A stretch of DNA of 64,000 bases from an uncultured Gammaproteobacteria bacterium (GCA_964424615.1 CAYRIU010000007.1:20052-84051); one strand, 5' to 3'. Shown: positions 9,455 through 61,853, counted from the stretch's first letter. The notes: generated by a model not told the origin, from the letters alone. Numbers and translations: made by a program.

Positions 9455-9479
9455 ATTTTTTTATTTAATATTATAAATT

Positions 9480-9956
9480 TTATCTGACTAAAACTGGATA
9501 ATTTGTTCCATATTTTTTACACGAGCCTATTTTTAACTTACCAGAATCTTCGCGATACAACCAATATAAAGTATTATAACCATTAGAGCTAGTATATAAA
9601 GGATCTTTCGGAATCTGCCCAATATAGCCATCATCAATCAAAGTATCTAAAACCAAAAAAGCTGATGTTGTAGTAGCATCACAACCAGCTGTACCACTAC
9701 CACCAGTAGTAGTAGCTAACATATAAGTCACACCGCTAGACATTGTAGAACTTGGTAATGAGCTATTATTATCTGCTAGATAGGCCTGGAAGGCATCAGC
9801 TACAGCTGATAAATCCTGCCACCTAGTGGCATCTCCTGCATTACCTACTCTCCTTGCTGGATTGATAGCTACGAATGTAGCAGCAGCTAGTAAGGCAATG
9901 ATAGCAATAACAATAATCAACTCAATTAATGTAAACCCTTGATTTTTATTTTCCAT
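9480..9956 (-). CDS. Type IV pilin (major pilin paralog)
   Basis: 158 aa. MENKNQG|FTLIELIIVIAIIALLAA. An extended -10 TGtTATAAT sits on the minus strand at plus 9978-9986. Confidence 0.9.
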   Translation of the reverse strand: MENKNQGFTLIELIIVIAIIALLAAATFVAINPARRVGNAGDATRWQDLSAVADAFQAYLADNNSSLPSSTMSSGVTYMLATTTGGSGTAGCDATTTSAFLVLDTLIDDGYIGQIPKDPLYTSSNGYNTLYWLYREDSGKLKIGSCKKYGTNYPVLVR

Positions 9957-10029
9957 GTAAAAATATAATAATGTTTATATTATAACATGTTTTTGTATTT
10001 TAAGACAGTATCTTATTTATCCACAAGCC

Positions 10030-24433: not shown

Positions 24434-26599
24434 CTAGTTCCGTAAAAAATCTTCCAGCATATTTATTAGCTCTTGCTGTTTATCTACTTTGGCTTGCTCC
24501 AAATATGCATTTAGATCGGCAATCTGAGATTGATCAAAACTATTTTCACTGTGTTGCAAGTTCCAATCTTTCACTATACCAACATTGTGGGCAAATTCTT
24601 TGTAATCTTTAGTCAGCCAATAGACTTGTGCTAATTTCCAGTAAACATCACGAGAGTGTGGCGCTAAATCCCTAGCCAATAAGGCTTGTTCTTGAGCTTT
24701 TTCATATTCGCCTTTTCGCTGGTATTCTTTTTCTAAAGCAAATTTTATTTCTACTCTCCAGGGAGCTAATTTTGACATAGCTTCTAACAAATAAATATCT
24801 CTATCAATAAATGACTGATCAAAATTACCGACAAACTGATAAAAATTGGATAAAAACATGCCGGATCTGATATCCATTGGATATTTTTCATAATTTGATT
24901 CCAGATATTGACCAGTTAAATTCATAAATTCAAATCTAATATCATCAGTGGCATATGGATTACTAATAATCAAGCCCAAAATATCATTCAGAGATGCGGT
25001 TTTTTCTTTGTCACCTAACGGTACCATACCATATGATTTAATCCAATTATTCTTAACCATCTGAAAATCATCCGCAGTCTTTGCTCTTTGCGCCTCGGTA
25101 AATGTCTGAACAAAAATAATGTTACTCCTCCAAGGCTTCCAAGCCATATAATAAACTAAAGCAAAAGATAATAAAATTAATAAAATTTTTCTAAATAATA
25201 AATTAAAACGGTGTGTATTTAAATTTTCTTGCCAAGTTTTAAACCAAGACATCAGTCTAGATTGACGATCTATATCTGAGATGGTCAATGAAAATAAATA
25301 GGCTAAAATTAGATAAAAAACAACATTAACATTAAGATTGTCAAAGATAAAGAAATCTTGAACCAAAAAACTAATCAAAAAAGCTGCCCACAAAGATGGC
25401 ATCACCCAAGTATCCCCTCTTTTGATCAGGCTACGTAAAATAAACAAAAGATAAATAAATATAGCAATATATAAACCAAAGCCTACTAAACCGCCATGGA
25501 CCAAATGCTGGACCAAAATATTGTGCGGTCTATCAAACCATATCTCTGAGCCCATAGTTACAAAAATAGCCGAAGGGAAATACTTGTTAAAAGAGTCAGA
25601 AAAATTCTCCTCACCCCATCCGAGCAATGGTTTTTCTCTAAAAGAATATAAAATACTATTTTTCCAGATCATCAAACGTGATTGAGTGCTAGTATCAGTC
25701 AAAGATATATTGGCCAATCTAGAAAAAATTGGCACTGATTTTACCCAGGAGCTATCTTTTTGTACAAAAATCAAAGTAATAAACAGTAAAGCCGCTATCA
25801 CCAAACTGATCACGGTATAATAAAATTTTTGCCTATTATGCCTTTCATAATATAAATATGCTGAGGCCAATAGAAGAGCAAAAAATACTAGACCCAAAAA
25901 AGCACCTCTAGTCTCAGTGGCTAATAAGATAACAATAAATATCACGATGCTAATGGCATAATAAAATGCTGACCAAGAATAAAAATTATGGTTTATAAAT
26001 TTTTTAATCAACAAATAAGTAGCCAAAACTATATTCAAAAATAAATAAGAACCGACGTAGGCCGCATTACCTAAAGTACTAGATAAGCGTTGACCGCCAG
26101 CTGAGCTCATTAGAAAACTTACATTCAAAACCTGCCCCACAGCATACAAGGCAACCAAGACAGCCACAAACAATGAAGTCTTAAATAAAACCTGCCAATC
26201 CTCTGCCGTTTTATTAATACCAATCAAAACTATGACATACATCAAGATGTGATACCAATTGACTAGACCATCCATTCTTTCAAATGAACTCCAAAAACTA
26301 AAAAGAAAATGACCACCAAAAATACTAGAAATAGTCAAAGTCAAAATAAATAAGACAAACAAAATCAAACCTTTGTTAAATTTTGGCCACTGATAAGTAT
26401 TTTTTATAACCAACCAAATATAAAGAGGAAATATGATATCAATAATCAGTCTAAAAAATATATTGCGAGGAAAAACAAAAGGAAAATATGCATCACCGTA
26501 TATAATAAGCGGAGCAAACAAAATCAGCATTAAACCGCATTTGATCACTAATTTTAATATTGCATCTTTTCCTACAAAATGACTAGATAATTTTGACAT
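24434..26599 (-). CDS. O-antigen ligase/polymerase-like (Wzy_C-type) polytopic membrane protein with C-terminal TPR repeats
   Basis: 721 aa. More than 10 TMs in the N-terminal 430 aa and a TPR-like C-terminus. Paralogous in architecture to 46009-48195. Confidence 0.65.
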   Translation of the reverse strand: MSKLSSHFVGKDAILKLVIKCGLMLILFAPLIIYGDAYFPFVFPRNIFFRLIIDIIFPLYIWLVIKNTYQWPKFNKGLILFVLFILTLTISSIFGGHFLFSFWSSFERMDGLVNWYHILMYVIVLIGINKTAEDWQVLFKTSLFVAVLVALYAVGQVLNVSFLMSSAGGQRLSSTLGNAAYVGSYLFLNIVLATYLLIKKFINHNFYSWSAFYYAISIVIFIVILLATETRGAFLGLVFFALLLASAYLYYERHNRQKFYYTVISLVIAALLFITLIFVQKDSSWVKSVPIFSRLANISLTDTSTQSRLMIWKNSILYSFREKPLLGWGEENFSDSFNKYFPSAIFVTMGSEIWFDRPHNILVQHLVHGGLVGFGLYIAIFIYLLFILRSLIKRGDTWVMPSLWAAFLISFLVQDFFIFDNLNVNVVFYLILAYLFSLTISDIDRQSRLMSWFKTWQENLNTHRFNLLFRKILLILLSFALVYYMAWKPWRSNIIFVQTFTEAQRAKTADDFQMVKNNWIKSYGMVPLGDKEKTASLNDILGLIISNPYATDDIRFEFMNLTGQYLESNYEKYPMDIRSGMFLSNFYQFVGNFDQSFIDRDIYLLEAMSKLAPWRVEIKFALEKEYQRKGEYEKAQEQALLARDLAPHSRDVYWKLAQVYWLTKDYKEFAHNVGIVKDWNLQHSENSFDQSQIADLNAYLEQAKVDKQQELINMLEDFLRN

Positions 26600-28137: not shown

Positions 28138-29402
28138 TGATAAATAAAATAAAAAATAGAATCTATAATATATTACGCCAGAGTGAAAAATATACCCAAA
28201 CTGATATGGTTTACTTAGCCAAAGGTGGTTTTTGGTTAACTCTTGGTTATGGAACAAATATATTAAAGGGGTTAATTCTTAGTATTTTGATGGCCAACCT
28301 GCTAGCCAAAGAAAGTTATGGATATTATAGATATATATTATCAATATTTAGTCTAGTGGGCATATTTTCCATAGGGGGAATGAGTACAGCCATTACTCAA
28401 TCGGTAGCTAGAAATTTAGATGGCATATTTAAACAAGCAATAAAAATTATCCTAAAATGGTCATTACTAGGTAGTGTGGCGTTACTGGTGATATCAGCAT
28501 ATTACTTTAATAAACATAACCTAAATTTTACCTGGATTTTTATATTTTTAGCTTTACTATTTCCATGGTATTCAATATCTAGTTATTATGGTGCTATACT
28601 TTCTGGTAAAAAAAGATTTGATGTGCAGACCAAATATTTTACTATCTACTCCTTAATTACTTCAATTGTAATAATTACCACCATTTTATTAACAAGTAAT
28701 GTATTTTGGATCATATTTGCCTTTATACTCTCTGATGGAATAGTTGGTGGATTCTTTACTTACAGAGCATCAAAAAAATATTTATTAAATGACAAAGTGG
28801 ATCCAGATAGCTTAAATTATGGAGTCAAATTGTCACTCATAGGTATTATAGGACTTATAGCTCAAAACATAGACAAAGTAATATTACCAATACTCCTAGG
28901 CTTCCAAGAATTAGCTGTCTATTCTATAGCCTTGGTAGTACCAGAACAAATTAAAGTTTGGTTTAATAACTTTGGCACACTAGCTTTGCCAAAATTTTCG
29001 GAGCATAAACCAAGTAAAGAAATAAAAGAAAAAATTATAAAAGCTAGTTTTAAGGCTATGATCTTGGTATTTTTGATTATAATAATTTATTGGATAAGTG
29101 CCACTTGGATATTTAACTTAATATACCCAAAATATACTGAAGCCATAATATATTCAAAGGTACTGAGTCTATCATTATTAGCCATACCTTCATTTCTCAT
29201 CAATAATTTCTTTAAAGGAAACAAAAGAAGTGATATTATACTAAAAGAAAATATATTTTATTCCAGTTTACAAATATTATCTGTGATAATATTTACTTAC
29301 TTCTTTGGTTTGTGGGGACTAGTATTTGCTCGCACAATTACTAGATTGTTTACATTTGTATATGACATATACCTACTAAAAAAAATGCCTACATCTATAT
29401 AA
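28137..29402 (+). CDS. Polysaccharide flippase (Wzx/MOP superfamily)
   Basis: 421 aa, about 12 predicted TMs. Start overlaps the stop of the sugar transferase. Confidence 0.7.
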   Translation: MINKIKNRIYNILRQSEKYTQTDMVYLAKGGFWLTLGYGTNILKGLILSILMANLLAKESYGYYRYILSIFSLVGIFSIGGMSTAITQSVARNLDGIFKQAIKIILKWSLLGSVALLVISAYYFNKHNLNFTWIFIFLALLFPWYSISSYYGAILSGKKRFDVQTKYFTIYSLITSIVIITTILLTSNVFWIIFAFILSDGIVGGFFTYRASKKYLLNDKVDPDSLNYGVKLSLIGIIGLIAQNIDKVILPILLGFQELAVYSIALVVPEQIKVWFNNFGTLALPKFSEHKPSKEIKEKIIKASFKAMILVFLIIIIYWISATWIFNLIYPKYTEAIIYSKVLSLSLLAIPSFLINNFFKGNKRSDIILKENIFYSSLQILSVIIFTYFFGLWGLVFARTITRLFTFVYDIYLLKKMPTSI

Positions 29403-29435
29403 TGTAGACATTTTTTAGTATAAATAAAATTACTT

Positions 29436-44108: not shown

Positions 44109-44316
44109 CGCCATTCTGGAATGACACAACAATTAAATATCTTTACTTAAATTTATCCGTCATTCTGGAGGCCGTAGGCCTATAGAATCCCATTGGGATC
44201 CTATCGCTGGACTTCCTCGTCATCCTGAACTTGTTTCAGGATCTCATTGGGATTCCGGATCACCCGCCCGCCATGACCGCCAGTCAGGCGTGTCGGGCGG
44301 GAGTCCGGAATGACAT
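44109..44316. repeat. GC-rich (~50%) structured island with nested inverted repeats, flanked by 11-nt direct repeats c(t/c)ggaatgaca
   Basis: ggaatgac (44120) pairs with gtcattc (44159); gtcatcc (44218) pairs with ggaatgac (44308). Hairpin cccgcccg/cgggcggg (44263-44303). Two copies of cattgggat. Composition contrasts with the ~33% GC surroundings. Confidence 0.5.
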
Positions 44317-44321
44317 AATAA

Positions 44322-44612
44322 CTAAAGCTCTTTACTCAAATCCTTCCAATCCTTATTAAACGAATCAATTAGTTTATTTTTCCAATCTCTATGCCAATTC
44401 TTCAACTGCTTTTCTCTAGAAATAGCCTCATAAACATCCTCATAAATTTCATAATAAACTAACTTATCTACATTATATCTACGAGTAAATCCTTTAGCTA
44501 CTTGCTCTTTGTGTTGAAATATTCGGCCTAATAAATTACTAGTGATGCCTACATACAAGACTGTGTTATTTTTATTTGTCAAAATATAGACAAAATATTG
44601 CTTGTCGTACAT
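44322..44612 (-). CDS. GIY-YIG nuclease family protein
   Basis: 96 aa. YFVYILTN...LYVGITSNLLGRIFQH...YYE...AISREKQLK is the GIY-YIG core. Confidence 0.85.
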   Translation of the reverse strand: MYDKQYFVYILTNKNNTVLYVGITSNLLGRIFQHKEQVAKGFTRRYNVDKLVYYEIYEDVYEAISREKQLKNWHRDWKNKLIDSFNKDWKDLSKEL

Positions 44613-44741: not shown

Positions 44742-45923
44742 ATGACAGTAGATAAAAAACTAAGTGGTAAAAAAATATTATACCTCATCACCCAAACTAA
44801 ATGGGGTGGAGCTCAAAAATATGTCCTGGAGCTGGCTACATATTTTGCTAAAAATAATGAGGTACATATAGCCCATGGCGAGGTGGATCATCCTAATAAA
44901 AAATTTTTAGACTACTGCCAAAAACTAAATATCAAAACTATCCCCATAAAATATTTGGTACGCAACATAGACCTCAGTAATGAATTTTTGGCTACCAAAG
45001 AAATTACAAAATTGTTAAATAAAAATAACTATAATATCATACACCTCAATAGCTCAAAGGCAGGTGCCGTCGGCTCTCTGGCTAGTATGTTTTATAACTT
45101 TAACCCACTAAATGTCAAAGCTAAAATAATCTACACTGCTCATGGATATGTTTTTAACGAGCCTCTCAATACTCTAGTACGTCGAGCCTACATCATGTCT
45201 GAAACTTTCTCAGCTGGACTACAAAACAAAATAATAGCTGTCTCAGAATACGACAGGCAATCAGCTATAGATCAAAAAATATGTTTGCCAAACAAAATCA
45301 CAGCCATACATAATGGCGTCAATGAAGCGGATTATAATTTTTTACCAAAAGAAACTGCTCGAGCTGAACTAAAGCTTGATTCAAAATATAAGTATATCGG
45401 CACCATTGCTAGCTTTTACAAAGCCAAGGGCTATCATTATCTTGCTGAAGCTATCAAAATGATCAAAGACGAAACACCACATTTTTTGGAAACACATCGT
45501 TTCACTTGGATTGGTGATGGACCAGAGCTCACTGAAATACAAAAATATTTAGAAGAAAATAAATTATCAGAATATATCACTATCACTACACCGACTGACA
45601 ATGACTGGCGATTTATAAAAGCTTTTGACTATTTCGTCTTGCCATCGGTCAAAGAAGGTCTGCCATATTCCCTTTTGGAGGCTGGACTGGCTAAGATACC
45701 AGTGATTAGTACTGAGGTTGGTGGTATACCAGAGATTATCAAAAATAAAGACAATGGCTATCTGGTCACGCCAGCCAATCCCCTATCTCTCAAAAATGCC
45801 ATATTAGAACTCAGCGATAATCATGCCCTATCTCAAAATATAGCTGATAAAAATTATATTAATATCAAAGAAAATTTTTCTCTAGATAAAACCATCTTAG
45901 AAACAGAAAATATATATTTATAA
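44742..45923 (+). CDS. Glycosyltransferase family 4
   Basis: 393 aa. Glycos_transf_1 domain (LPSVKEGLPYSLLEAGLAKIPVISTEVGGIPEII). Confidence 0.85.
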   Translation: MTVDKKLSGKKILYLITQTKWGGAQKYVLELATYFAKNNEVHIAHGEVDHPNKKFLDYCQKLNIKTIPIKYLVRNIDLSNEFLATKEITKLLNKNNYNIIHLNSSKAGAVGSLASMFYNFNPLNVKAKIIYTAHGYVFNEPLNTLVRRAYIMSETFSAGLQNKIIAVSEYDRQSAIDQKICLPNKITAIHNGVNEADYNFLPKETARAELKLDSKYKYIGTIASFYKAKGYHYLAEAIKMIKDETPHFLETHRFTWIGDGPELTEIQKYLEENKLSEYITITTPTDNDWRFIKAFDYFVLPSVKEGLPYSLLEAGLAKIPVISTEVGGIPEIIKNKDNGYLVTPANPLSLKNAILELSDNHALSQNIADKNYINIKENFSLDKTILETENIYL

Positions 45924-45936
45924 AATATTTTTAAAT

Positions 45937-46006
45937 AAAAATACCCCCTCTTTTTCTCCCCCTAAATTAGGGGGAGATGTCCGTGAGGACAGAGGGGGTA
46001 TTTTTT
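45937..46006. repeat. ~65-nt nested-hairpin repeat, copy A; probable bidirectional terminator between convergent genes
   Basis: Outer stem taccccctct/agagggggta. Inner perfect palindrome ctccccctaa-a-ttagggggag. Flanked by an A run and a T run. Near-identical to the reverse complement of 55643-55707. Confidence 0.75.
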
Positions 46007-46008
46007 GG

Positions 46009-48195
46009 TTATTTTTGATTTTTTAAATCTTCTAAATATTTGATGTACTCACCAACTGTCGACTGCATTTCGGGGTGTTGAAATAAAACATTTCGTAGGT
46101 AATCTATAGCTTTCTGATACTCCTTGCGAGACTCATAAATAGAAGCCAGGGAAATATATGCACTATAATTATTTGGATCGCTTGGTATGGCTTTTTCTAC
46201 CAATATACTTTCTGCTTTATCTACTAAACCAGCTTCAAAATAATATTTACCAATAAGACGATAACTTTCACTCGTCGCTGTAGGAAAATGTTCATTAAAT
46301 TGATCAATGTAAAAATTCATTTTATTATAGTCTTTTAACTGTAGGGAAATATTAATAATATTGAGATAATCACTTTCACGTCTCTGACTGATGGTTAATA
46401 TCTTTTCTAAATATTCTATACTTTTTGCTAAATCTTTTTTGAGATAATATCCCTGAGCCAAAGTGGTATAAATCTCCAATCTATTGGGAGAATCATCAAT
46501 ATTATTAATAATCACATTTATAGATTCATCTATATAAAAATCATTAAAACTAGAATAATTTTGGTAAAGTTCAGCTAAAATAAGACGTGTCCTGATATCA
46601 TGCGGATCTTTTTTCAAAACATCCAATGCTGATTTTTCTGCTTCTTCAAAAATTTGTTTTTGTAACTGAAAACTAAAATCTTTACTATCTAAAGTTTGTA
46701 AAGAATATTTAACCAACTGAGATGTAATCTCAGAATTACCATATGTATGGTAAGATAAGGCTTTCTTATATAGCCCCAAAACCTTATTTGGGTCAATAAC
46801 ATAATTTCTAACAGCATCTATACTAGTAGCATTAGCTTTAGCTGGTAACCATAAAATATTATAAGCCACTAAAATAACTATAACTATATTAATATAAAAA
46901 AATAAACTACCGATTTTTTTTATACTATTTGGCAGGTAAAAAAAATGTTCTTGCTCATTGCCACCACTCAGTACTCCTACAAAAGCTAACATAGCAATAA
47001 CCAAAATCCAAGTATTAATAGTATCAAAAACAAACAAATTACTAAATAAGTAACTGATAAACAAACCTAAAATAATAATAGCTAAATTAAAATCTTTATT
47101 CTTTATTTTCCATAATGCAAAACTAGTGGCTACAAAAATTAATAAATAAGCTAATAAGCCCACAATACCACTGCTACCTAGATAGTCAAAAATAAAACTA
47201 TGGGCTTTATCAAACCATTGTTCTGTAATTTCTGGATTATAATATTTATTAATGCCATAAATAATATTTTCCGGTCCATAACCTAAAATTGGTTTATCCT
47301 TGAATGCTTCATAAGTGACCTGCCATGTCAGCAAGCGATTATTGGTGCTAAAATCTGAGCGAGAAATACTGGTTAATCTTTTTAAAAACAAAGTATGCTC
47401 AACCCAACCAGAATTTTTTTGACTTATAACTAAAGTACCAAACAAGATGGTCAAAAAAATTAAGCTAAAAAAAATATATTTTATTTTTTTATCTTGTGAC
47501 CAGCTATAAAATATAGCCCAAATAAATATACCCAGTAATAAGCCCAAGATACTACCTCTGGAAGCATTTATAAGAATACTAAAAACTAGAGTTATGGCTG
47601 TGATACCACATAATATAGCCATTTTCCTACTTTTATCCAAGTGATATATAATAGCAGCGATAAAAACATTTATCATTAAATAGGAGCCCAAAAAAGCTGT
47701 GTTCCCTATAGTACTGGCATTAGCAAAAAAACTACCCTGTACACCAAGACGATCTAAAAACATAAAAAACATGACACACCAAGAGCTAAGTAGTGCAATT
47801 TTTAAAAACCACAGCCAAGTCTCTCTAGTCTTAAAAGTATTAATAAGTGCCAAAAAATATAAAGTCAAAAATATAATATTTAATAATCCATCCATACGCT
47901 CATAATTCCCCCAAAAACTATGGTAAGGGTTGACACCAAAAATTGTAGCTAATAACTGTACACCAAAAAATATCAACCAAGAATACCAAATATAATTTTT
48001 TTTACCGGCAATTTTACCATCAACAAAAAAATTATAGGAAACCAAAAGCATGACTAATAATACTAAAAATCGAAAAACAAAATTTTTCAAACTAATAAAT
48101 GGAAAAAAGAAACTATCACTTACAAACAATGGTGTAAATAAAACAAATATCAAAATTAACTTTTTAACTTTTTCTATTACCTTATTTTCAAGCAT
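46009..48195 (-). CDS. O-antigen ligase/polymerase-like polytopic membrane protein with C-terminal TPR repeats (paralog of 24434-26599)
   Basis: 728 aa. More than 10 TMs, then TPR-like repeats. Confidence 0.65.
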   Translation of the reverse strand: MLENKVIEKVKKLILIFVLFTPLFVSDSFFFPFISLKNFVFRFLVLLVMLLVSYNFFVDGKIAGKKNYIWYSWLIFFGVQLLATIFGVNPYHSFWGNYERMDGLLNIIFLTLYFLALINTFKTRETWLWFLKIALLSSWCVMFFMFLDRLGVQGSFFANASTIGNTAFLGSYLMINVFIAAIIYHLDKSRKMAILCGITAITLVFSILINASRGSILGLLLGIFIWAIFYSWSQDKKIKYIFFSLIFLTILFGTLVISQKNSGWVEHTLFLKRLTSISRSDFSTNNRLLTWQVTYEAFKDKPILGYGPENIIYGINKYYNPEITEQWFDKAHSFIFDYLGSSGIVGLLAYLLIFVATSFALWKIKNKDFNLAIIILGLFISYLFSNLFVFDTINTWILVIAMLAFVGVLSGGNEQEHFFYLPNSIKKIGSLFFYINIVIVILVAYNILWLPAKANATSIDAVRNYVIDPNKVLGLYKKALSYHTYGNSEITSQLVKYSLQTLDSKDFSFQLQKQIFEEAEKSALDVLKKDPHDIRTRLILAELYQNYSSFNDFYIDESINVIINNIDDSPNRLEIYTTLAQGYYLKKDLAKSIEYLEKILTISQRRESDYLNIINISLQLKDYNKMNFYIDQFNEHFPTATSESYRLIGKYYFEAGLVDKAESILVEKAIPSDPNNYSAYISLASIYESRKEYQKAIDYLRNVLFQHPEMQSTVGEYIKYLEDLKNQK

Positions 48196-48199
48196 AAAT

Positions 48200-49027
48200 C
48201 TATTTTAAATCTATTAATCCTTGTAAGCGATCAATTTCTTTCTGCTCTTTACTACCAGATATTTTTTCATATTCACGCCACATTATGATGGCCTGTGTAT
48301 AATCTTTTTTAACTCTCTCTAAATAATAGGCATACTCTTTTGTGATATCTAGTTTGTTATCTACTGTTGCTATGCCCATACTGTAAATATTATCTGCTTT
48401 ATTAACATCGCTAGAATATCTACTATACAAATTAGCTAGCCTGATATAGCCCTCCGCTTCTTTTGGGTAAATATTAATAACTTTATAGAGTAATGTAGCC
48501 GAATCTTTATATTGACCCATCATTAAATATAAATTACTCAAATTAATCATGGTCTTATAATCATCAGGCCATAATTCAAAAATCTTTTTATAAGCAATTT
48601 CAGCTTCTTGATATTTAGCTAAAATATCATAAGCATGAGCAATATTAAAATAATCATCTTTCAAATTTTTATACTCTGATTTAGATGGCGTGTTGTTTGC
48701 TATGGCTTTTTGTGAAATGTCAATTTCGTTTAAATAAACATTTTTTACATTATCTGGTGGTAAAACCGACCCCTCTGTCGGTCGCTCTGGCGTGTTTTTG
48801 AAATATTTATCAACATCACTAACGTCTAATTGACCAGCTAACGCTCTTTTTTGCTCTACTTTTTTTTGATAATAATTATAATAAAAAATGCCACCAAAGC
48901 CTATAATTATAGCTAATAATATAAAGATGGTTTGACGCCACTTTGCTAGCCAAATCTTTTGTTTGTTATTATCCATATTTGTTAAGTTAATTACCAATAA
49001 TATAGCAAACTTTGTATATTTTAGCAA
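48200..49027 (-). CDS. TPR-repeat protein with N-terminal membrane anchor
   Basis: About 258-275 aa with one TM then TPR repeats. The ORF-track start is a TTG; the ATG at approx 48976 (MDNNKQK) is more likely. Confidence 0.6.
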   Translation of the reverse strand: MLKYTKFAILLVINLTNMDNNKQKIWLAKWRQTIFILLAIIIGFGGIFYYNYYQKKVEQKRALAGQLDVSDVDKYFKNTPERPTEGSVLPPDNVKNVYLNEIDISQKAIANNTPSKSEYKNLKDDYFNIAHAYDILAKYQEAEIAYKKIFELWPDDYKTMINLSNLYLMMGQYKDSATLLYKVINIYPKEAEGYIRLANLYSRYSSDVNKADNIYSMGIATVDNKLDITKEYAYYLERVKKDYTQAIIMWREYEKISGSKEQKEIDRLQGLIDLK

Positions 49028-49058
49028 AATCCCGCCCCGCTTACGCGGGACGGGATTT
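49027..49058 (-). terminator. GC-rich hairpin downstream of the 1181-aa gene
   Basis: aaatcccgccccgc-ttac-gcgggacgggattt. The T tract on the minus strand is short (4 nt), so termination efficiency is uncertain. Confidence 0.5.
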
Positions 49059-49105
49059 GCAATATATCAAATTACCTTGACTAACAGATTTTCTAAAAAT
49101 TAATA

Positions 49106-52100
49106 TTAATTCTTAGATAGAGTCTGTGAATCAGTTGGTAAAACTTTGACATAGACAGAATCAGCCCAATCAGCTGAAGTACCATCAGAGGCATGAGGAC
49201 TTGCACTTCTATCTGACCAAATAAAGCCAGTTTCATACAATGACAATAAAGTCAAAGTTGTAGAAGTACCAGCTTCAGCAGTAGAAACGCCAGAAGCATT
49301 AATCTTGGTACCGAAAGATTGTGCGGATGCAGCACCAGTTATATCACCCTTCAACACATAAGTTTGTGTTGTACCTTTGGTAATGGTCTGATCGTTGGTT
49401 GTAGTGACAGTAATTGTCTTATTAGCCACGTTTAAATTTGGATAATAAGTATTCAAAGCTGTGGAGTCACCATCTTTGTACAACTTGATAGTACCATTGG
49501 TAATAGTGGTGGCACTGGTAGAAGCATAGGTCCAAGACATCTGTCTCCAGCTCAAATCAGCTACTGCATCAGCAGTGATTGAGAAGCGAGAAATTGTCTG
49601 AGTACCATTGTCTAATAAATTGGTTGGAAGTGCGACCAAGGCAATAGTTGGCTTGGTAGCTCTCACAATCATTACGTTACCAGTGACTGCACTTGGACCA
49701 GAGTAAGTAGTAGATCCAGATAGATCACCAATAGCGCTAAATTTATTAGAATCACTGCCATCAGCAGCAACTAGACTCAATTGAACAGCGTTATTGGCAC
49801 CAGTGATTGAACCACCAGAGAAGGTCGATAAATCAGCTTTGATGCTCAAAACTGCAGTACTGTCTTTATCTACAAACATACCTAAGTTGTAGAATTGAGC
49901 AATACCACTACCATTCAAATAAGCATAGGCAGTATTTGTACCTGTCTTAGTTGGATATTCAACAACCACTCTAGAAACAGGGGCAGTGAAACCACTTGTG
50001 TCATTTTTAACCTGTAGATTATTAATGACAAATGGTTCTTTTGTGGCAGTAAATTCAACTGAATTTACTAATACACCAGTCAAACCAGCCACGATGATAG
50101 TGGCATCTGGTTTGGCACCAGCGCTAGTGGCAGTGACACCGCCAGTAGCGACAGCCATGCTTTGTAAAGTTGTGTAGCTTGAAGTGACTGTTGTATTAGT
50201 GACGGCACTAGTACCATCAGCATTCATAGATAGATTGATAACGGCGCTAGCTAAACCGGATTTGACATCAGCATAGACATCGACCTGTTTGTTTTGACCG
50301 GCATTCAACACTAATCTGCTACCCATACTCAATGTAGTAGTACTGTTGGAAGAAGGCAAGGTTGTCTTGCTAGCCAATTCAGTAGTACCCAACATCAATC
50401 TCAAGTTCTGTAATTCACCAGAAGTAGCGCCAATAATATAAATATTATCAACGGTAACACCTTCTGTTGAACCAGCTGAGATGGTAAATGAAGCTATTTT
50501 AGCGCCAGTAGCTGGAGATGTTAAGTATTGATCACCATAAGCATTGTACTTAGCTGTACTCAAAGCTGAGGTGGTAACACTCAAAGTATTACCTTGGGCA
50601 GCTGGAAGAGTGACAGTTGACAAGGAAACTTGACCTTGTGCATCAGTGCTTGATGTGATGTCAACCTTGACACTACCAGTTGTAATATCAGCACTAGCTA
50701 CTGTTTTAATGTCGGCATAAATGTCGATCATCTTTGAGGTACCAGCTGGGACAATCAAGCTTGAGCCAAAGGTAAATAATGTACCTGCTTCAGCTATATT
50801 CTTTGTTGAACCAACTTGAACGCCATCAAAATAGACCTTACCATTTAACAAACCGCTACCAACAGTGGTAGTTGGGTCAACGGTAAAGCTCTTAATTTTA
50901 ACATCTTCACCATTGGCAGTTACCTTAAAGGTGGCTAATTTAATATTAGTACCTTTGGCAGTTACTGAACCAGAAGCAGAAGAGTTGTCACGAACTAATG
51001 ACAAAGTACCAGACTGTATATCGTATTGACCAGCTGGAGTCAAGGCAGTCCAAGAAGAACCATGTACAAATACATTGTAACCCTTGTCTCTAACTACTAA
51101 ATCGGAAGCGTATTGGACGCTAAATTTGAAGTTTCTGGTTGATCCTTTAATAATATCAGCTTTGACTGAGAAGGTCTTTGATTGACCCTTCAAAATATCA
51201 TAAGCGGAATTTGATAAATCAAAGTATAAAATACCATCAGCATCAAAATCAGCTACAGTGGCTAAAGTAGTGCCACCGACTTGCAATCTGAAATTGTTAA
51301 CATCACCAGTGGCAATGCTACCAATTTTGGTCAAACGCAAACCATGAAGAGCTAAATCTTGATCATTAGCAGCCAAGGTTAATTTGTAAACTTCAAAATC
51401 TTTTTCATCAGCATTAACAGTGACAGTGCCTGATGGAGTACCGTAATTACTGATAGTGGCGTAACCCAAATCAGAAGCTAAGGCGCTAGTCATTAAACTA
51501 CCAACTACAGGCAAAGCACCAGCAACTGATGAAGCGCTAGTAGTCAAAGCAGTCAAGTTAAAACCTAATGTGCGACCAGAAGCAGAAAGCACTGCTAGAT
51601 CAGCCTTTAACCAAACAGTCTTAGTGGCACCGGCTGGAATTGTGATAATACCATTGGCATCACTATCATTGAAGGTTAATACTTTTGTAGAAATAGAACC
51701 ACCATCAACTAACTTGGTGTTACCTTCATACAAATAAGCCTCGGCAATGTCAGCATCAGATGATATACCAGTGCGCTCAAATTTCATTTGAGTAACTTTG
51801 ACACTACCTTCATTAGAGGCGGTCAAATTGACAGCTAAAAATGGCACCATTGATTGGGATCCATTTGTATCATCGGAAATGATAGTAGCTGAAGCTGGAT
51901 TCATAGCTGACATAGAGACAGTCAAGGAACCAGGATTTGTTACTACTGGGGTATCATTTGGCATAAAGTCTTTGATAGCAGACTCAGCGCCAGTGATAGA
52001 TGAACCATCAGAGTAGCCAGTCAAGCTGGTCACAGTGACAGCGTCAGAAGCCATATAGCCATTGGCTGCGTAGGCAGCGTCAGAGGCAAAGGCTCTCTTG

Positions 52101-52651
52101 GTAGTACCATCAATGTAATACATGGTAGTACCCATCTTCACTACAGTACCAGTTGGATACATGGTGGATACATCAGCACCAGTGGTGTTGTAGGAAGCGA
52201 AGAAACCTGGAATCACGTCAACTAAACGTGAGGCCCAGTTGTCACCATATAAAGCTTTGGCGATGGTATCGGTTGGGATCCAGCGAGCCATACCGCCTGG
52301 TTCAATAGCATAAACCTTGGCAGTGTTCATATGAGTGACTAATTTGGTGCCAGGACGGACAGTCACAGCAGCACCATCTGCATACATATCTAGTTCGGCA
52401 ACAGCTACTCTGACAACTTTGTCAAAGTTTGGATACCAAGTAGCATATTCTTTCTGACTTGGAAAGACATGCTTCTTCATATCAGTACCGATCAAGTATA
52501 CAGCAGCGCCTGATTGACCCTTCAAGGCCAACAAGGAGCCGGCTGGGTAGCTACCAGCAGCGTTGGCCACTGGCACAAAAGAAGCGCCAACTGACCATAA
52601 CACAGTGGTAATCACCACGGAGTATACGAATAGTTTTTTTAATAAATTCAT
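49106..52651 (-). CDS. Large secreted Thr/Ser/Ala-rich surface protein (1181 aa)
   Basis: Signal peptide MNLLKKLFVYSVVITTVLWSVGASFVPVANA. Low-complexity beta-rich repeats throughout. TATAAT lies 12 nt upstream of the ATG (plus 52664-52669). Confidence 0.8.
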   Translation of the reverse strand: MNLLKKLFVYSVVITTVLWSVGASFVPVANAAGSYPAGSLLALKGQSGAAVYLIGTDMKKHVFPSQKEYATWYPNFDKVVRVAVAELDMYADGAAVTVRPGTKLVTHMNTAKVYAIEPGGMARWIPTDTIAKALYGDNWASRLVDVIPGFFASYNTTGADVSTMYPTGTVVKMGTTMYYIDGTTKRAFASDAAYAANGYMASDAVTVTSLTGYSDGSSITGAESAIKDFMPNDTPVVTNPGSLTVSMSAMNPASATIISDDTNGSQSMVPFLAVNLTASNEGSVKVTQMKFERTGISSDADIAEAYLYEGNTKLVDGGSISTKVLTFNDSDANGIITIPAGATKTVWLKADLAVLSASGRTLGFNLTALTTSASSVAGALPVVGSLMTSALASDLGYATISNYGTPSGTVTVNADEKDFEVYKLTLAANDQDLALHGLRLTKIGSIATGDVNNFRLQVGGTTLATVADFDADGILYFDLSNSAYDILKGQSKTFSVKADIIKGSTRNFKFSVQYASDLVVRDKGYNVFVHGSSWTALTPAGQYDIQSGTLSLVRDNSSASGSVTAKGTNIKLATFKVTANGEDVKIKSFTVDPTTTVGSGLLNGKVYFDGVQVGSTKNIAEAGTLFTFGSSLIVPAGTSKMIDIYADIKTVASADITTGSVKVDITSSTDAQGQVSLSTVTLPAAQGNTLSVTTSALSTAKYNAYGDQYLTSPATGAKIASFTISAGSTEGVTVDNIYIIGATSGELQNLRLMLGTTELASKTTLPSSNSTTTLSMGSRLVLNAGQNKQVDVYADVKSGLASAVINLSMNADGTSAVTNTTVTSSYTTLQSMAVATGGVTATSAGAKPDATIIVAGLTGVLVNSVEFTATKEPFVINNLQVKNDTSGFTAPVSRVVVEYPTKTGTNTAYAYLNGSGIAQFYNLGMFVDKDSTAVLSIKADLSTFSGGSITGANNAVQLSLVAADGSDSNKFSAIGDLSGSTTYSGPSAVTGNVMIVRATKPTIALVALPTNLLDNGTQTISRFSITADAVADLSWRQMSWTYASTSATTITNGTIKLYKDGDSTALNTYYPNLNVANKTITVTTTNDQTITKGTTQTYVLKGDITGAASAQSFGTKINASGVSTAEAGTSTTLTLLSLYETGFIWSDRSASPHASDGTSADWADSVYVKVLPTDSQTLSKN

Positions 52652-53023
52652 TTTTCTTTGTTAATTATAATGTCCCAAAACTGTTGAAAAAAGTCGTAAG
52701 CAATAGGCATCTCATATGATCAGTATGAGACTAAACTATGAATCAAAGGACTTGTCATAAGACATCGACCTTTCTAATCACAGTGACCATAGGCCCAAGG
52801 CGCAGTCACAATTTTCTCAAATTAAGGAACAGTTATTAAATGCTCTAGATGGCTTTTTATCGCCACAAGAGCTTCCCTAGATCGCGCGCGATTTAGCGAT
52901 AAGTTAGGGACAAATGAATCCATCAATATCTGATAGACCCCTTTGCCCATAACCTATCTTCGACGGACTAAGTCGAGATCGGCTAGACCCAGGATCAATA
53001 CGCTAACTATGTAAAATTACTTA

Positions 53024-54397
53024 TTAGTAAAATTCTTTAGGGGCCACTTCTTCAGGAATACCTTCGTCTTCTTTGATACCTTGTTCAGATATCGCTTCTG
53101 GAGTAGTTGTTTCATCACTAGATTTTATGACTGTGCCAGGTATGGTTGGTTTGGTAGTAGTTGGTACAGGCAAAGTGATCGGCTTGGTGCTGGTACTAGT
53201 GGTAGTGGCATTCACACCATTGATATTGATAGCTTCTATTCTTTTGATCACTTCTTCAGCTTGCTGATAAGTCTCCTTGACCTCAGTGATCTTCTCCATA
53301 CTATCTTTGAGATTACCCTGAGCCAAAAGATCTTTAGCTTGATTGAGGTTGGCCTCCATGATTTCTGGGTGAGACTTCAAAGTATCAATACTTTCTATGG
53401 CCTTAGCATCAGATTCTACGGCTTTGGCAGTGGATGCCTTAGGTAAACTATTAATATCTTTTTTATCAACGCTTTCTACTTTAGTTTTGGCATCAGCTAC
53501 TTCTTTGGATAGGACATTCAATTCTGAGTTCACTATCTTGGTCACTACTTCAGTCACTGCTTTTAGCTCATCACTATTGACCGCGTTAGTGGCGATGACT
53601 GCGGTAGTCTGAGAAGCTGGACCATCAGCTATTGGAGCATCTTTTGTGATGTTAGTCACCACTTCTTCATGGACAGTGATAGCTAAATTGACAGCTGAAT
53701 CTTTGACTTCTTGGTTGACTTTCTTGGCATCGCCCAATGCTTTGGCAATCTCTGTACCTTTGACGGTGGAAACTTTTTGATCAAGATTACTAGCTGTTTC
53801 ATTAGCTACATTAGCTACTTTTTCTACCAAAGCCACTACCTGCACTGGTGTCTTTTCTTCTTTGACTATTTTCAGAGAGTTATCTACTGCTACTACATCC
53901 TTTTCTAGATGACTCACGGCTTGCTTGATGGCCTTCTCGGTTTTTACACTATTGACTTGACTGTCATTATTTTCACTATCTTTCAAAATTTGGTCTATCT
54001 CATCCAAACGTGTATTGATATGTTTGATATGAAGCTCAGTCTTCTTGACTGGACTCAAGGTCAAGGCTAGCTCGGCTTCCTCCAAATTGCGTTTGAGTGG
54101 CCACATAGCATCGCCAGGTACAGTGGACTGTGCGAGTGCTACTAGACTAAAGCCAGAACCAACTGATAATACCAATACGACAGCCACTACCTTGGTCAAA
54201 GATGGCAATAATGTTGAGAAAAAATTAGCAAAAAACAAAGTAAAGCCATCACTAAATGATCGCTTCTGAGATTTTATCAAGCGACTCTGCACTGTCACCT
54301 CAGACATTATAGAATACTTGGTGGCATGAGCCCATTGCTCATCAGGATTGATGCTTGATAATTTTTTTAATTGAGCTAATTGTTTACGAATGCTCAT
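53024..54397 (-). CDS. Putative anti-sigma factor (cytoplasmic N-terminus, single TM, coiled-coil/Ala-Lys-rich extracytoplasmic domain)
   Basis: 457 aa. TM around residues 55-85. Lies immediately downstream of the ECF sigma gene. Confidence 0.5.
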   Translation of the reverse strand: MSIRKQLAQLKKLSSINPDEQWAHATKYSIMSEVTVQSRLIKSQKRSFSDGFTLFFANFFSTLLPSLTKVVAVVLVLSVGSGFSLVALAQSTVPGDAMWPLKRNLEEAELALTLSPVKKTELHIKHINTRLDEIDQILKDSENNDSQVNSVKTEKAIKQAVSHLEKDVVAVDNSLKIVKEEKTPVQVVALVEKVANVANETASNLDQKVSTVKGTEIAKALGDAKKVNQEVKDSAVNLAITVHEEVVTNITKDAPIADGPASQTTAVIATNAVNSDELKAVTEVVTKIVNSELNVLSKEVADAKTKVESVDKKDINSLPKASTAKAVESDAKAIESIDTLKSHPEIMEANLNQAKDLLAQGNLKDSMEKITEVKETYQQAEEVIKRIEAININGVNATTTSTSTKPITLPVPTTTKPTIPGTVIKSSDETTTPEAISEQGIKEDEGIPEEVAPKEFY

Positions 54398-54436
54398 AAT
54401 GTTTATACCAACTTACTTAATATATTAAGTAAATAA

Positions 54437-54991
54437 TTATTTATTGTTATTCAAAGATTTTAATTTATTGAGTGCCCTATGTATCAACACTCTGATATTA
54501 TTTTTATCCTTTTGCATGATCTGAGCTATGTCATCTATAGATAGATCTTCGACATAGCGTAAGATCAAAACTTCTTGATACTCTGGCTTCATCTTTTGTA
54601 ATAAGTCCAGCAGGGATTGTAAATCAATAGACTTATCAATACTGTCAGTCTTTTGATCAGTATATGGATCCTCTGTCTCATCAGCGTACTCGAGTGGCAA
54701 CTCTTGGCGTCTAGACAAGCGATAAAAATCAATAACGGCATTGCGGGCTACTCGAAAGATAAAAGCACCAAAATTTTGAATGTCTTTTTTATCTACCAGA
54801 TGTTGCCAAGTCTTCAAAAATATATCTTGCGTAATATCTTGAGCCACAGCTTTATCGCTGACCCTAATATAGACAAATCGATAAACCCTGGTCATATATT
54901 GGTCATAAAAAAAAGCAAAAGCTTCAGAATCGCCATTTTTCAGCTTTAGCAACTGTATTTTCTCTTGTAAACTATCCTTCAAACTGTACAT
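54437..54991 (-). CDS. ECF-family sigma-70 factor
   Basis: 184 aa. Region 2 (FYDQYMTRVYRFVYIRV...DITQDIFLKTW) and region 4 HTH (QEVLILRYVEDLSIDDIAQIM...IRVLIHRALNKLK). Confidence 0.88.
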   Translation of the reverse strand: MYSLKDSLQEKIQLLKLKNGDSEAFAFFYDQYMTRVYRFVYIRVSDKAVAQDITQDIFLKTWQHLVDKKDIQNFGAFIFRVARNAVIDFYRLSRRQELPLEYADETEDPYTDQKTDSIDKSIDLQSLLDLLQKMKPEYQEVLILRYVEDLSIDDIAQIMQKDKNNIRVLIHRALNKLKSLNNNK

Positions 54992-55169
54992 AAATATAGA
55001 CGGGCTTAATCTAGAAATATTACACCCTAATTAGGCCAATTAGGCCATATTTTACACTATAATGCCCACAAATGTAAATCGTGGTAATATATAGACCACA
55101 TTATACCAGAATTTGCTATGTTTGTAAAGTATCACAAATGGCTTAAAAATTAAGATATATCAGTAAAAA

Positions 55170-55290
55170 CGGCGCGGTGGACTATGAAAATGTCATTGCG
55201 AGGAGTGTAAACGACGAAGCAATCTATAAGCTGGTAGATTGCCACGTCCCGCCGCGCGGGACTCGCAATGACATTAAGACCACCGCGCCG
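55170..55290. repeat. GC-rich 121-nt long imperfect hairpin (11-bp and 11-bp outer stems plus an inner 7-bp hairpin)
   Basis: cggcgcggtgg (55170-80) pairs with ccaccgcgccg (55280-90). gtcattgcgag (55192-202) pairs with ctcgcaatgac (55262-72). Inner gtcccgc-cgc-gcgggac at 55246-62. Confidence 0.6.
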
Positions 55291-55374
55291 TACTGTTAAT
55301 AACCGTCTCTTAAATTGACTATTAATTGATTAAGGTATAGAATAGTGTATACATAAATACTTATTTTAGATCAT

Positions 55375-55665
55375 ATGGAGAATATAATTAGACTATCAGT
55401 ATCAGAGGCTGCCAAACTAATTGGGGTATCATCCAAAACAATCAGGCAGGCTATCAAAGCTGAAGAGCTAACCTACATAGTAGTCAAAGGACGTTATAAA
55501 ATAAGTTTTGCCTCTCTAGTGGAGTGGTCGCAAAAATCAACCAGAAGATACCACCAATTACAAAAACAAGGTGTCGGGCAATTTGTAGACCAATGGAAAA
55601 TACGCAACAAAAAATATAGCCCAAATCCTGAATTGATCAATAAAAAAATACCCCCTCTGTCCTAG
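55375..55665 (+). CDS. Excisionase-family/MerR-like helix-turn-helix DNA-binding protein (HTH_17)
   Basis: 96 aa. LSVSEAAKLIGVSSKTIRQAIKAEELTYIVVKGRYKISFASLVEW matches the excisionase-family HTH. The last 7 codons run into repeat copy B. Confidence 0.7.
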   Translation: MENIIRLSVSEAAKLIGVSSKTIRQAIKAEELTYIVVKGRYKISFASLVEWSQKSTRRYHQLQKQGVGQFVDQWKIRNKKYSPNPELINKKIPPLS

Positions 55666-55707
55666 CGGACATCTCCCCCTAATTTAGGGGGAGAATGAGG
55701 GGGTATT
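55643..55707. repeat. ~65-nt nested-hairpin repeat, copy B (inverted relative to copy A)
   Basis: aaaaaataccccctctgtcctagcggacatctccccctaatttagggggagaatgagggggtatt differs from the reverse complement of copy A at only a handful of positions. Sits between convergent genes. Confidence 0.75.
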
Positions 55708-55708
55708 A

Positions 55709-56794
55709 TTATTTCATCTCCAAGTCCATCTCTTTACCATCACGAACTATCTTGAGAATAATCTTATCACCTAACCTTTAGTTTTGCAGAATAGACGTAA
55801 TAGTTCTATCTTTGGTGACAGAATCATTATTGATAGATAAGATGCGATCTTTAGCTTTGAGACCAGCTCTAGAGCTAGGAGTATTTGGTAAGACTGCTTT
55901 ATTGAGAGTAGCACTATAAACATAATCACCCTTGATCTCGATACCACTGTTGTTTTCTAAGTCAATATAGCTAATACCCCACACTGGTCTTTCGGTGTTG
56001 TCCAATAAGTGTTTGACTGCCTGTTTTAAGTAATCAGCTGGCAAAAGCACAACCTCCTTATTTGGCAACCTATAACCCAAACCAATCAAATCACCCTTGA
56101 GGTTAAAATATGGAGCTGCTGAAACCATATTATCCGTGCTCATGTCAGTCAACTTATAATAATAATCTATACTATCAGTAGACAAATATATACCAGTAGT
56201 AAAGTGAATATTGCCCAACAAAGCTGTGCTAAAAGTATGATTCAAACTATTAGCCAACTCTTTATCAGTAAAAATCCTCTCCCCGGCTTTGACTCCTTCG
56301 GTCAATTGAAAATTGACAGCCAAAAGATTAGAGGCCTTGATTTTTATAAACACCGCGCCAGAAAAAGCATCTTTTTTGATTTCTTCTATGCCAAATACCT
56401 GATCATTAAGCACTACCTTGCTTTGAGTGTTCAATAAAACCTGGTCAGTGGACATCAACCATCCGTCTGAGGTCACTACCACAGCTGAACCAAGATAATC
56501 AGCTCGATCAAATATTGGATTGTCCAAATCAGAAATTGTTTTACTGTTTTTGTATAAGCCAGCAATACTAGCTTCGTATTTGTTTGCTACTGATGTCAGA
56601 GGTTGCTCTAAATTGATCTTGATATCTGGCTGATTGGATAAGAATGATATATTGGAAGGCACGAACCATTTGCCTAGCAAATAGCCACCGAAGCCAGCCA
56701 CCAGACCAAAAATAACCGCCAAAATAGTCAAGCTAAATAATGACTGCGGTCTCTCAGTAGTTGGTCTCACAAAATGTTCTTTTTTTTCTTCCAT
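55709..56794 (-). pseudogene. Membrane-anchored PDZ-domain protein interrupted by an in-frame TAA (reported ORF 55778-56794; the frame continues 22 codons to 55709)
   Basis: After ...DRTITSILQN the codon at plus 55778-55780 is TAA. The same frame continues RLGDKIILKIVRDGKEMDLEMK*, the expected last beta-strands of the PDZ domain. An N-terminal TM is present. Confidence 0.6.
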
Positions 56795-61821: not shown

Positions 61822-61853
61822 CAAAAAACCCGATCCGCCAGCTGGCGGATCGG
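61822..61853 (-). terminator. Rho-independent terminator downstream of secY
   Basis: Perfect 10-bp stem ccgatccgcc-agct-ggcggatcgg, followed on the minus strand by GTTTTTTG. Confidence 0.8.

Follow-up and report, generated by a model that had tools for sequence, protein, structure and literature searches.

Two near-identical palindromic repeats, copies A and B, lie in inverted orientation at the ends of a 9.7-kb segment within a 64,000-nucleotide stretch of DNA from an uncultured Gammaproteobacteria bacterium (GCA_964424615.1 CAYRIU010000007.1:20052-84051), referred to here, at its full length, as the window. Each copy very likely belongs, independently of the other, to a dispersed family of nested palindromes, GC-rich and ~60 nt long, that is found in low-GC Patescibacteria, and both are likely to serve as terminators. 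The family is a new one, of a known kind of small dispersed repeat. What lies between copies A and B is a core helix-turn-helix (HTH) gene and an operon ancestral to the chromosome, with no cassette, and the inverted orientation and 9.7-kb spacing of the pair are incidental.

Sequence and predicted fold of the two copies

A repeat search of the window returned a single outstanding inverted pair, with 61-nt arms (45946-46006 and 55643-55703) that are 92% complementary. The elements within these arms, their parts, and their scores with a covariance model (CM) of the family are as follows.

Copy A: 45941-46001, + strand, 61 nt, CM score of 89.1 bits; ATACCCCCTC-TTTTT-CTCCCCCTAAATTAGGGGGAG-A-TGTCC-GTGA-GGACA-GAGGGGGTAT
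Copy A flanks: AAAA at 45937-45940 and TTTTT at 46002-46006; these lengthen the helix and give U-tracts on both strands
Copy A outer stem, 5' arm: 45941-45950, + strand; pairs with 45992-46001
Copy A hairpin 1: 45956-45976, + strand; 8-bp conserved stem CTCCCCCT/AGGGGGAG, with the apical AAATT variable in the family
Copy A hairpin 2: 45978-45991, + strand; TGTCC-GTGA-GGACA
Copy A outer stem, 3' arm: 45992-46001, + strand; GAGGGGGTAT
Copy B: 55648-55706, - strand, 59 nt, CM score of 79.2 bits; reverse complement ATACCCCCTC-ATT-CTCCCCCTAAATTAGGGGGAG-A-TGTCC-GCTA-GGACA-GAGGGGGTAT
Copy B parts, read on the + strand: outer arm 55648-55657; hairpin 2 55658-55671; hairpin 1 55673-55693; outer arm 55697-55706

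Copies A and B are 92% identical, and all five differences are unpaired, in the linker (TTTTT versus ATT) and in the hairpin-2 loop (GTGA versus GCTA), while the stem pairs are identical at 23 of 23 positions. An earlier note on this DNA had described an inverted, near-identical pair with few differences, located at convergent gene junctions and conspicuously rich in G and C; the repeat arms, the gene positions, and a GC content of 52-54% in the copies versus 35% in the window confirm this description. The 21-nt core CTCCCCCTAAATTAGGGGGAG occurs in the 64 kb only at the two copies, even when three mismatches are allowed (0 expected, 100 shuffles). A CM scan of the window with filters off gave no third copy, and the CM gave none in L053, which covers another 10 kb of this genome.

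Both copies are predicted to fold into a three-way junction, in which a 10-bp closing stem, extended by the A/T runs, surrounds two hairpins. The 10-bp outer stem and the 21-nt palindrome had been recognized before, but the second inner hairpin, TGTCC-N4-GGACA, had been missed. Folding energies of the two copies on both strands range from -42 to -45 kcal/mol (z = -6.8 to -8.2), and the element would adopt this junction on either strand, as single-stranded RNA or single-stranded DNA. Rfam 15 gave 0 hits at the gathering threshold across the whole window and nothing relevant at E <= 1 on five family loci. ARAGORN found no tRNA or transfer-messenger RNA (tmRNA) usable as an integration site.

A dispersed family with genome-specific variants

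The exact 28-mer core occurs 14 times, at 13 loci, in six species-representative metagenome-assembled genomes (MAGs) labelled Candidatus Komeilibacteria, “Patescibacteria group,” “bacterium,” and, in two cases (CAZEWH01 and CAYVXP01), “uncultured Gammaproteobacteria,” a label that is unconfirmed. The loci in the last two MAGs have 34-43% GC and carry housekeeping genes. A pattern consisting of the outer arms and half of hairpin 2 gave 28 additional metagenome loci and 0 hits on viral contigs, with no sign of phage origin. In total, 36 distinct copies were collected; their sources are MAGs and metagenome contigs of low GC content, for the most part with the label Patescibacteria or Komeilibacteria. 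The earlier note had proposed a search for further copies, and the outcome was many copies at unrelated loci in several genomes.

Family copies have sharp ends and unrelated flanks and share the consensus (A)TACCCCCTC, a linker of 3-7 nt, CTCCCCCT-loop-AGGGGGAG, A, TGTCC-loop-GGACA, and GWGGGGGTA(T). The stems are near-invariant; it is in the linker and the two loops that copies differ, both in sequence and in length, giving elements of 59-68 nt. The terminal inverted repeat (TIR), (A)TACCCCCTC and GWGGGGGTA(T), is present in 36/36 copies, and the GC content of the element is 0.49-0.62 versus 0.28-0.44 for the host loci. A CM was built on the 26 copies of regular length. Covariation did not exceed that of shuffled controls, the stems being invariant except for one compensatory pair (U-A to C-G, in locus L007).

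Copies are scattered within genomes, with five on the 860-kb contig Ga0233448_1000001 and four on the 812-kb contig Ga0233431_1000006 when strict patterns are used; both contigs are probably near-complete genomes. The variable parts differ from genome to genome: the loop AGTCT is found in four of four copies of the 812-kb contig, Komeilibacteria copies have an AAATT or AATTT loop and a TCTTT linker, and CAZEWH01 copies have a TCTGT or TCAGT linker and a GAA loop. Such genome-specific variants point to copying or homogenization of the element within genomes. Copy A is identical at 60 of 61 positions (98%) to a Komeilibacteria copy that lies within an open reading frame (ORF), a closer match than copy B, whereas identity between the two genomes in secY DNA is 70.5%. 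Near-invariance across distant hosts is in part a product of collection by exact patterns and may otherwise reflect horizontal spread or a sequence-specific factor.

Evidence of gain, loss, and exchange at orthologous positions

Relatives of the window carry other hairpins where copies A and B are found. In L048, the junction between the Wzy and glycosyltransferase (GT) genes, which holds copy A in the window, is occupied by a bidirectional terminator, AAAAAACTTCCGC-TAGTGA-GCGGAAGTTTTTT, and the junction between the PDZ and HTH genes, which holds copy B, by a plain hairpin. The site of copy B could be followed through a cluster (90% identity) of 17 HTH proteins, whose tails differ after ...NKK. 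The terminal sequence IPPLS marks the element and is found in the window and in L052 (MAG JAUPVE01); the endings INPEG, INPTGNPTG, and ...TLS derive from other palindromic repeats, of type CAACCCGNCGGGTTG, and the ending ...NKKIIPPLS contains both kinds of repeat together. When the DNA of this site is aligned, the left flank AATAAAAAAA and the right flank TTATTATTTCAT (the end of the PDZ gene) are conserved, and only the hairpin unit between them varies: TA-CCCCCTC...GGGGG-TA in the window and L052, a 17-nt hairpin plus T-run in L050 and L051, and longer arrays around a plain terminator in L047 and L045.

The reciprocal situation is found in a Komeilibacteria genome syntenic with the window from 54.7 to 64 kb, where the element lies immediately after secY. 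The same slot is filled by a plain hairpin in the window (CCGATCCGCCAGCTGGCGGATCGG, 61829-61852) and by another hairpin in L045. In addition, the Komeilibacteria genome has an element that separates the DUF192 gene from the MraY-like gene; in the window, these two genes overlap. A complete 60-nt element is also present in frame within a Komeilibacteria C39 peptidase gene (L017:1026-1086, equivalent to L003 and L038), where it encodes TPSLSPPKLGGDVREDRGGI in a variable acidic linker after the N-terminal membrane helix. No element-free allele of this gene was found in its 90% cluster, and homologues with <=65% identity are too variable in the linker to define an empty site. An element in L011 was considered as a possible case behind a Wzy orthologue and rejected, the 731-aa gene there being topA.

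Presence and absence at fixed sites, the in-frame copy, and the swapped hairpins are consistent with a discrete unit inserted or swapped at terminator positions and inconsistent with an anciently conserved orthologous sequence. TA is present at both ends of nearly all copies, and the alignment of the copy B site is compatible with TA duplication, though it includes no clean empty site.

Association with gene ends and probable role in termination

Family copies always adjoin the 3' end of a gene, apart from the rare ones that lie within an ORF. Genes could be placed on both sides of 22 of the 36 copies, and the arrangement was convergent in 7, tandem in 15, and divergent in 0. The convergent share (32%) compares with ~5% of the junctions in the window (P = 7e-5, or 0.013 when the window copies and L052 are left out). 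There are three convergent junctions in the window; two are filled by the element and the third (29402|29436) by a plain bidirectional hairpin. This third hairpin (29385-29416) is AT-richer. Ordinary single-hairpin terminators, GC-rich and with T-runs, also lie at 49029-49056, after a giant gene, and at the secY position mentioned above. These three illustrate the form that terminators other than the repeat take in this genome.

Copies A and B are wedged 0-17 nt from four stop codons. Their flanks hold 8 A on the left and 7 T on the right per 10 nt in one copy and 7 A and 8 T in the other. A GC-rich helix followed by a U-tract stands after the stop codon on both strands of copy A and on the - strand of copy B. 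Across the family, a T-run follows the 3' arm in 19/35 copies and follows all of the tandem copies in sense orientation (6/6). In eight of nine antisense tandem copies the next sequence in the direction of transcription is A-rich, and copies inside apparent operons are therefore mostly without a terminator configuration.

Copies A and B are probably bidirectional intrinsic terminators or 3'-end structures, a role suggested by sequence and context and supported by the plain terminators that relatives have in the same slots. The reading of the earlier note, that of a dispersed REP-like family of bidirectional terminators, is in substance supported: the copies are dispersed and enriched at convergent junctions, and the orthologous positions in relatives hold bidirectional terminators of the ordinary type.

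Proposed mechanism and points that weigh against it

Each copy in the window would fill a slot between convergent units, copy A between the GT gene and the operon running from the ECF (extracytoplasmic function) sigma factor gene to Wzy, and copy B between the HTH gene and the ribosomal protein operon that ends with the PDZ gene. There, the element would replace the simple GC-rich hairpin terminators found in relatives at the same junctions. Its sharp ends, unrelated flanks, genome-specific variants, presence and absence at fixed sites, one in-frame insertion, and one nested palindrome suggest that the family behaves as a nonautonomous mobile or copy-and-replace element, comparable to MITEs (short for miniature inverted-repeat transposable elements), REPs (repetitive extragenic palindromes), and SPRITEs (Rho-independent terminator-like elements of Streptococcus pneumoniae). 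Target duplication of TA, like that of IS630/mariner-type elements, is possible but unproven.

A bolder proposal, and a tentative one, is a mobile terminator: a 60-nt three-way-junction unit that would spread within genomes and pass horizontally from one to another distant one, overwrite native terminators, and be recognized by a sequence-specific factor of the host or of the element. It would be one of several related families of GC-rich nested palindromes and would occasionally land in frame in genes. A mobile terminator would explain the near-invariance of the stems (98% between copy A and the Komeilibacteria copy) despite a secY identity of only ~70%.

Several observations weigh against a mobile family of terminators. 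The terminal TA is itself palindromic and paired in the stem, and a compensatory CA/TG replaces it in L007, so that duplication of a target site is no more than possible. A partner transposase or autonomous element was seen neither in the window nor in the loci examined, and copy number is low, at ~5 per genome by strict patterns. The family was collected by exact-match patterns, which makes its conservation look inflated and the covariation test uninformative. With regard to termination, 16/35 copies have <6 T in 10 nt, the U-tract that follows copy B on the + strand (UAUUAUUAUUUCAU) is weak, and nine copies in apparent operons have a nonterminating orientation; termination is therefore not the universal role of the family. 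The branched 60-nt structure is also unlike a canonical terminator hairpin and is missed by a simple terminator scan, the loop limit of which (8 nt) makes the element invisible. Finally, inversion of the segment between copies A and B in a minority of cells would be compatible with the assembly-level data.

Unlikely alternatives: a structured RNA or a REP-type palindrome

A functional structured RNA is an unlikely explanation. On this account, the element would be a three-way-junction RNA of a 3' untranslated region (3'-UTR) or intergenic region to which a conserved protein binds, a site of mRNA stabilization or processing, or a small RNA, and would be maintained by selection with no mobile DNA involved. 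The very stable fold (z of about -7), the fixed stems beside linkers and loops that vary in sequence and length, the single compensatory change in L007, and the closeness of copy A to its Komeilibacteria counterpart (98%) in genomes whose secY has diverged to 70.5% are consistent with such an RNA. Nevertheless, the element has no fixed orientation with respect to transcription (six sense and nine antisense tandem copies, in addition to the convergent ones), lies in frame within an ORF, and is present or absent at orthologous sites in close relatives. Furthermore, covariation is no higher than in shuffled controls, no Rfam family matches, and the genome-specific variants suggest intragenomic copying.

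REPs can act as terminators or mRNA stabilizers. It is improbable that the element is a REP moved by a REP-associated tyrosine transposase (RAYT) or a palindrome derived from IS200/IS605 and acting via single-stranded hairpin DNA. Like the REP/REPIN-RAYT systems of Proteobacteria (REPINs being REP doublets forming hairpins), it is a GC-rich imperfect palindrome that is extragenic and located downstream of genes. In half of the copies, position 9/53 of the closing stem is a fixed T.T mismatch, which resembles strand-discriminating irregularities, and a Y1 transposase gene is found at exactly the Wzy|GT junction in L049. This enzyme, encoded by the only Y1 gene seen, is, however, of the IS200 type (NF033573, 120 bits) and scores 28.7 bits with the RAYT model versus a cutoff of 80 bits; the hairpins flanking it are unrelated to the element, and it was rejected as a RAYT partner. 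Neither a RAYT nor any other Y1_Tnp gene is present in the window. The element has ~5 copies per genome and not hundreds, all of them singletons with no inverted doublets of the REPIN or BIME (bacterial interspersed mosaic element) kind, has no conserved GTAG-like 5' tetranucleotide, and is branched rather than a single hairpin.

The insertion in L049 (9634-12128) occupies the slot orthologous to that of copy A and consists of a 617-aa ORF and the IS200-type Y1 transposase gene. Its hairpins are CCGCCAGC-TTTA-GCTGGCG and CCACCAGC-GTTA-GCTGGTGG. Similar CCGCCAGCTGGCGG hairpins are found in the secY terminator of the window (61829-61852) and in an element of a second family, with TAACCCC ends, in L013.

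Genes around and between the copies

The genes that adjoin or separate the two copies are listed below (TPR, tetratricopeptide repeat).

44742-45923, + strand: GT4/GT1 glycosyltransferase gene; stop 17 nt ahead of copy A
46009-48195, - strand: Wzy_C (O-antigen-ligase-like) plus TPR gene, last of the ECF-sigma operon; stop 7 nt past copy A
48200-49027, - strand: TPR protein gene; ECF-sigma operon
49106-52651, - strand: 1181-aa Thr/Ala/Ser-rich protein with a signal-like N-terminal segment; ECF-sigma operon
53024-54397, - strand: DUF5667 membrane protein, anti-sigma-like by position
54437-54991, - strand: ECF sigma factor; same operon order in L048 and L049
55375-55665, + strand: conserved HTH_17 gene, 96 aa; copy B gives IPPLS plus TAG (55663-55665, hairpin-2 loop)
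55709-56794, - strand: PDZ-domain protein gene, last of a long ribosomal-protein/secY/adk/map transcription unit

Between the copies there are five - strand genes, followed by a divergent intergenic region of 384 nt and the HTH gene. Copies A and B stand at the 3' ends of four transcription units and therefore enclose no single functional module. Copy B contributes the last five codons of the HTH gene (ATA CCC CCT CTG TCC, encoding IPPLS) and then TAG; the seven codons counted in the earlier note are reached if the preceding AAAAAA (KK) is included. The native stop of the PDZ gene (55709-55711) is 2 nt from the end of copy B. At position 55778 the window has T where the 99.99%-identical L014 has A, which changes a conserved Tyr to an in-frame TAA (55778-55780) and removes the last 23 residues of the PDZ protein; this nonsense change is either a real polymorphism or an assembly error.

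The earlier note had also suggested that the inverted pair could border an invertible or mobilizable 9.7-kb segment that includes an excisionase-family HTH gene and a surface-antigen gene. Such a segment could be a site-specific inversion switch or a composite element flanked by MITEs and carrying surface-antigen genes, with the HTH_17 protein as excisionase or recombination directionality factor. The inverted repeats are real and share an identical core of ~40 nt, the HTH gene matches excisionase-family models (PF12728 and TIGR01764), and two short contigs (L015 and L016) stop within copy A. MITE pairs flanking mobilized segments are described in a review of MITEs (PMC10969869). However, contig ends inside a palindromic multicopy repeat are normal for k-mer assemblers, and there is no composition boundary at the repeats.

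The earlier note had proposed a comparison of synteny and had named conservation of the segment in relatives without the repeats as refuting a cassette. Two relatives found through the Wzy protein, L048 (81% identity) and L049 (60% identity), retain the gene order PDZ, HTH, ECF sigma, DUF5667, giant protein, TPR, Wzy, and GT in the same relative orientation as the window, including orientation relative to the flanks, and the CM found no copy of the element in either. The orientation is also the same in L014, an assembly made independently from sample ERZ27282891 and matching the window at 99.99% identity across 21 kb. Only one orientation was seen in the window, L014, L048, L049, and all loci with the HTH|PDZ junction. 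The HTH protein is not the excisionase of a mobile element but the product of a conserved core gene, with a single domain: of its 331 homologues, those listed are 54-94% identical, with labels that include Komeilibacteria, Parcubacteria, Nomurabacteria, and Uhrbacteria, and all of the loci retrieved have the HTH gene convergent with the PDZ gene beside the ribosomal protein operon. No integrase, recombinase, or transposase was found in the 64-kb window or a further 10 kb by Pfam scans of all substantial ORFs and inspection of the gene tables of L014, L045, and L053. Inverted border repeats are present, but neither a recombinase in the window nor a second orientation was found, and with synteny conserved in relatives that lack the repeats, an invertible or mobilizable cassette is highly improbable.

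Comparison with known systems

A search of full-text literature on Patescibacteria and the candidate phyla radiation (CPR) yielded no account of repeats, MITEs, or terminators of this kind. The closest analogue is the SPRITE of S. pneumoniae. In its published description (PMC3049150), it has 30 copies per 2.2 Mb, no cognate insertion sequence, and no demonstrable target duplication, and it is proposed to be a co-opted terminator. That source describes it as AT-rich (28% GC), with a single 18-bp duplex and AAAA/TTTT ends, and as confined to S. pneumoniae and S. mitis. Both elements are low-copy, dispersed, and noncoding, combine a long stem with a U-rich tract, lie near gene 3' ends with strong enrichment between convergent genes, and show mutual insertion. 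The present element differs in being GC-rich (52-57%) in a 35%-GC genome, in forming a three-way junction, and in occurring in several divergent Patescibacteria genomes. There is no sequence relation between the two, which the published description sets apart in composition and architecture, and the SPRITE would be a functional analogue only.

MITEs are defined, in the review cited above (PMC10969869), as noncoding sequences of <500 bp with TIRs of ~4-30 bp and flanking direct repeats in young copies, usually AT-rich and intergenic. The element resembles MITEs such as the Correia elements of Neisseria and the repeat unit of pneumococcus (RUP) in being short and noncoding, with TIRs of ~10 nt and TA ends as in IS630/mariner-type elements, and in its location in AT-rich intergenic DNA, stable transcript structure, presence/absence polymorphism, and nested insertions. 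By this definition, its size, TIRs, noncoding nature, intergenic position, and dispersed copies with site polymorphism are those of a MITE, and its base composition is not. It is also much shorter (~60 nt), GC-rich, and present in very low copy number, with no transposase in the window.

Rickettsia palindromic elements (RPEs) are ~100-150 bp long and frequently intragenic, as stated in the same review (PMC10969869). The present element is likewise a palindromic repeat of a reduced genome that can be inserted in frame (the C39 peptidase) and add codons to a gene end (IPPLS), but only one or two of its 36 copies are intragenic. It shares with canonical bidirectional terminators a GC-rich helix, an A-tract and a T-tract, a position between convergent stops, and the slot in which relatives have their terminators. 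It differs from them in its closing stem, which encloses ~40 nt with two hairpins, and in a sequence that is repeated across loci and genomes.

Other palindromic elements and other features of the window

Elements related to the family were found at L042:2457-2537, L041:12770-12860, L009:3685-3772, L013:3676-3770, L047:1-130, and L048:2740-2830. In L042:2457-2537 the palindrome CCTGCCTGCCGGCAGGCAGG is nested inside the hairpin-2 loop. CM matches also revealed a second family with a similar architecture, TAACCCC...GGGGTTA around two or three C5/G5 hairpins.

In relatives, several different palindromic families are piled up between the ECF sigma and HTH genes. The divergent ECF sigma/HTH region of the window contains another nested GC-rich palindromic element of ~125 nt (55169-55296). 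The fold of 55150-55320 has an energy of -73 kcal/mol (z -8.5), with an outer stem CGGCGCGGTGG/CCACCGCGCCG and an inner stem GTCATTGCGAG/CTCGCAATGAC around two hairpins. L046, L050, and L051 have the CTCGCAATGAC pair at the orthologous site, and L004 has it at a locus that is unrelated, which indicates another dispersed family. A cluster of GC-rich palindromes (GTCATTCTGGA..., TCCGGAATGAC, and CGGGCGGG...; -80 kcal/mol, z -4.9) is located at 44110-44325, with a glycosyltransferase gene on one side and the gene for a 96-aa GIY-YIG protein on the other.

Elsewhere, the window has ordinary genes, namely, dnaK-grpE-hrcA, those for a MacB/HlyD transporter, type IV pilus genes with che-like ones, a polysaccharide cluster, and the secY/ribosomal protein operon. 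Two Wzy_C paralogues of ~720-730 aa (24434-26599 and 46009-48195) flank the polysaccharide gene cluster. Perfect CIRCE (controlling inverted repeat of chaperone expression) operators, TTAGCACTC-N9-GAGTGCTAA, occur at 3855-3881 and 8852-8878, with 0 expected by chance. The first is at the start of the hrcA-grpE-hsp20-dnaK operon, and the second stands upstream, by ~65 nt, of an operon for an ABC transporter of the HlyD/MacB type (7114-8787 and downstream), where an HrcA site is unusual. Adjacent paralogous N_methyl pilin genes (168 and 158 aa; 8948-9956 and 9189-10222) are the source of ~505-nt direct repeats with 70-90% identity. The pilin pair belongs to a type IV pilus cluster (PilM, PilC, and PilB) beside che-like genes and two giant Laminin_G_3 proteins.

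Implications for Patescibacteria

The analysis removes a tempting reading, that of a phase-variable or mobile surface-antigen cassette, and leaves the 9.7 kb as an ancestral ECF-sigma operon. Patescibacteria have reduced genomes of ~0.8-1 Mb and are usually considered poor in mobile DNA. The present data document a family of small dispersed palindromic elements in this group, which interchange with ordinary hairpins at terminators, extend some genes by a few codons at the end, and interrupt assemblies of short reads. The family bears on the annotation of CPR genomes, namely, on gene ends, operon boundaries, and contig breaks, and offers a tractable case of repeat-driven terminator turnover. 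The near-invariance of its stems across divergent hosts would point to a recognition factor or to horizontal spread, either of which is worth seeking.

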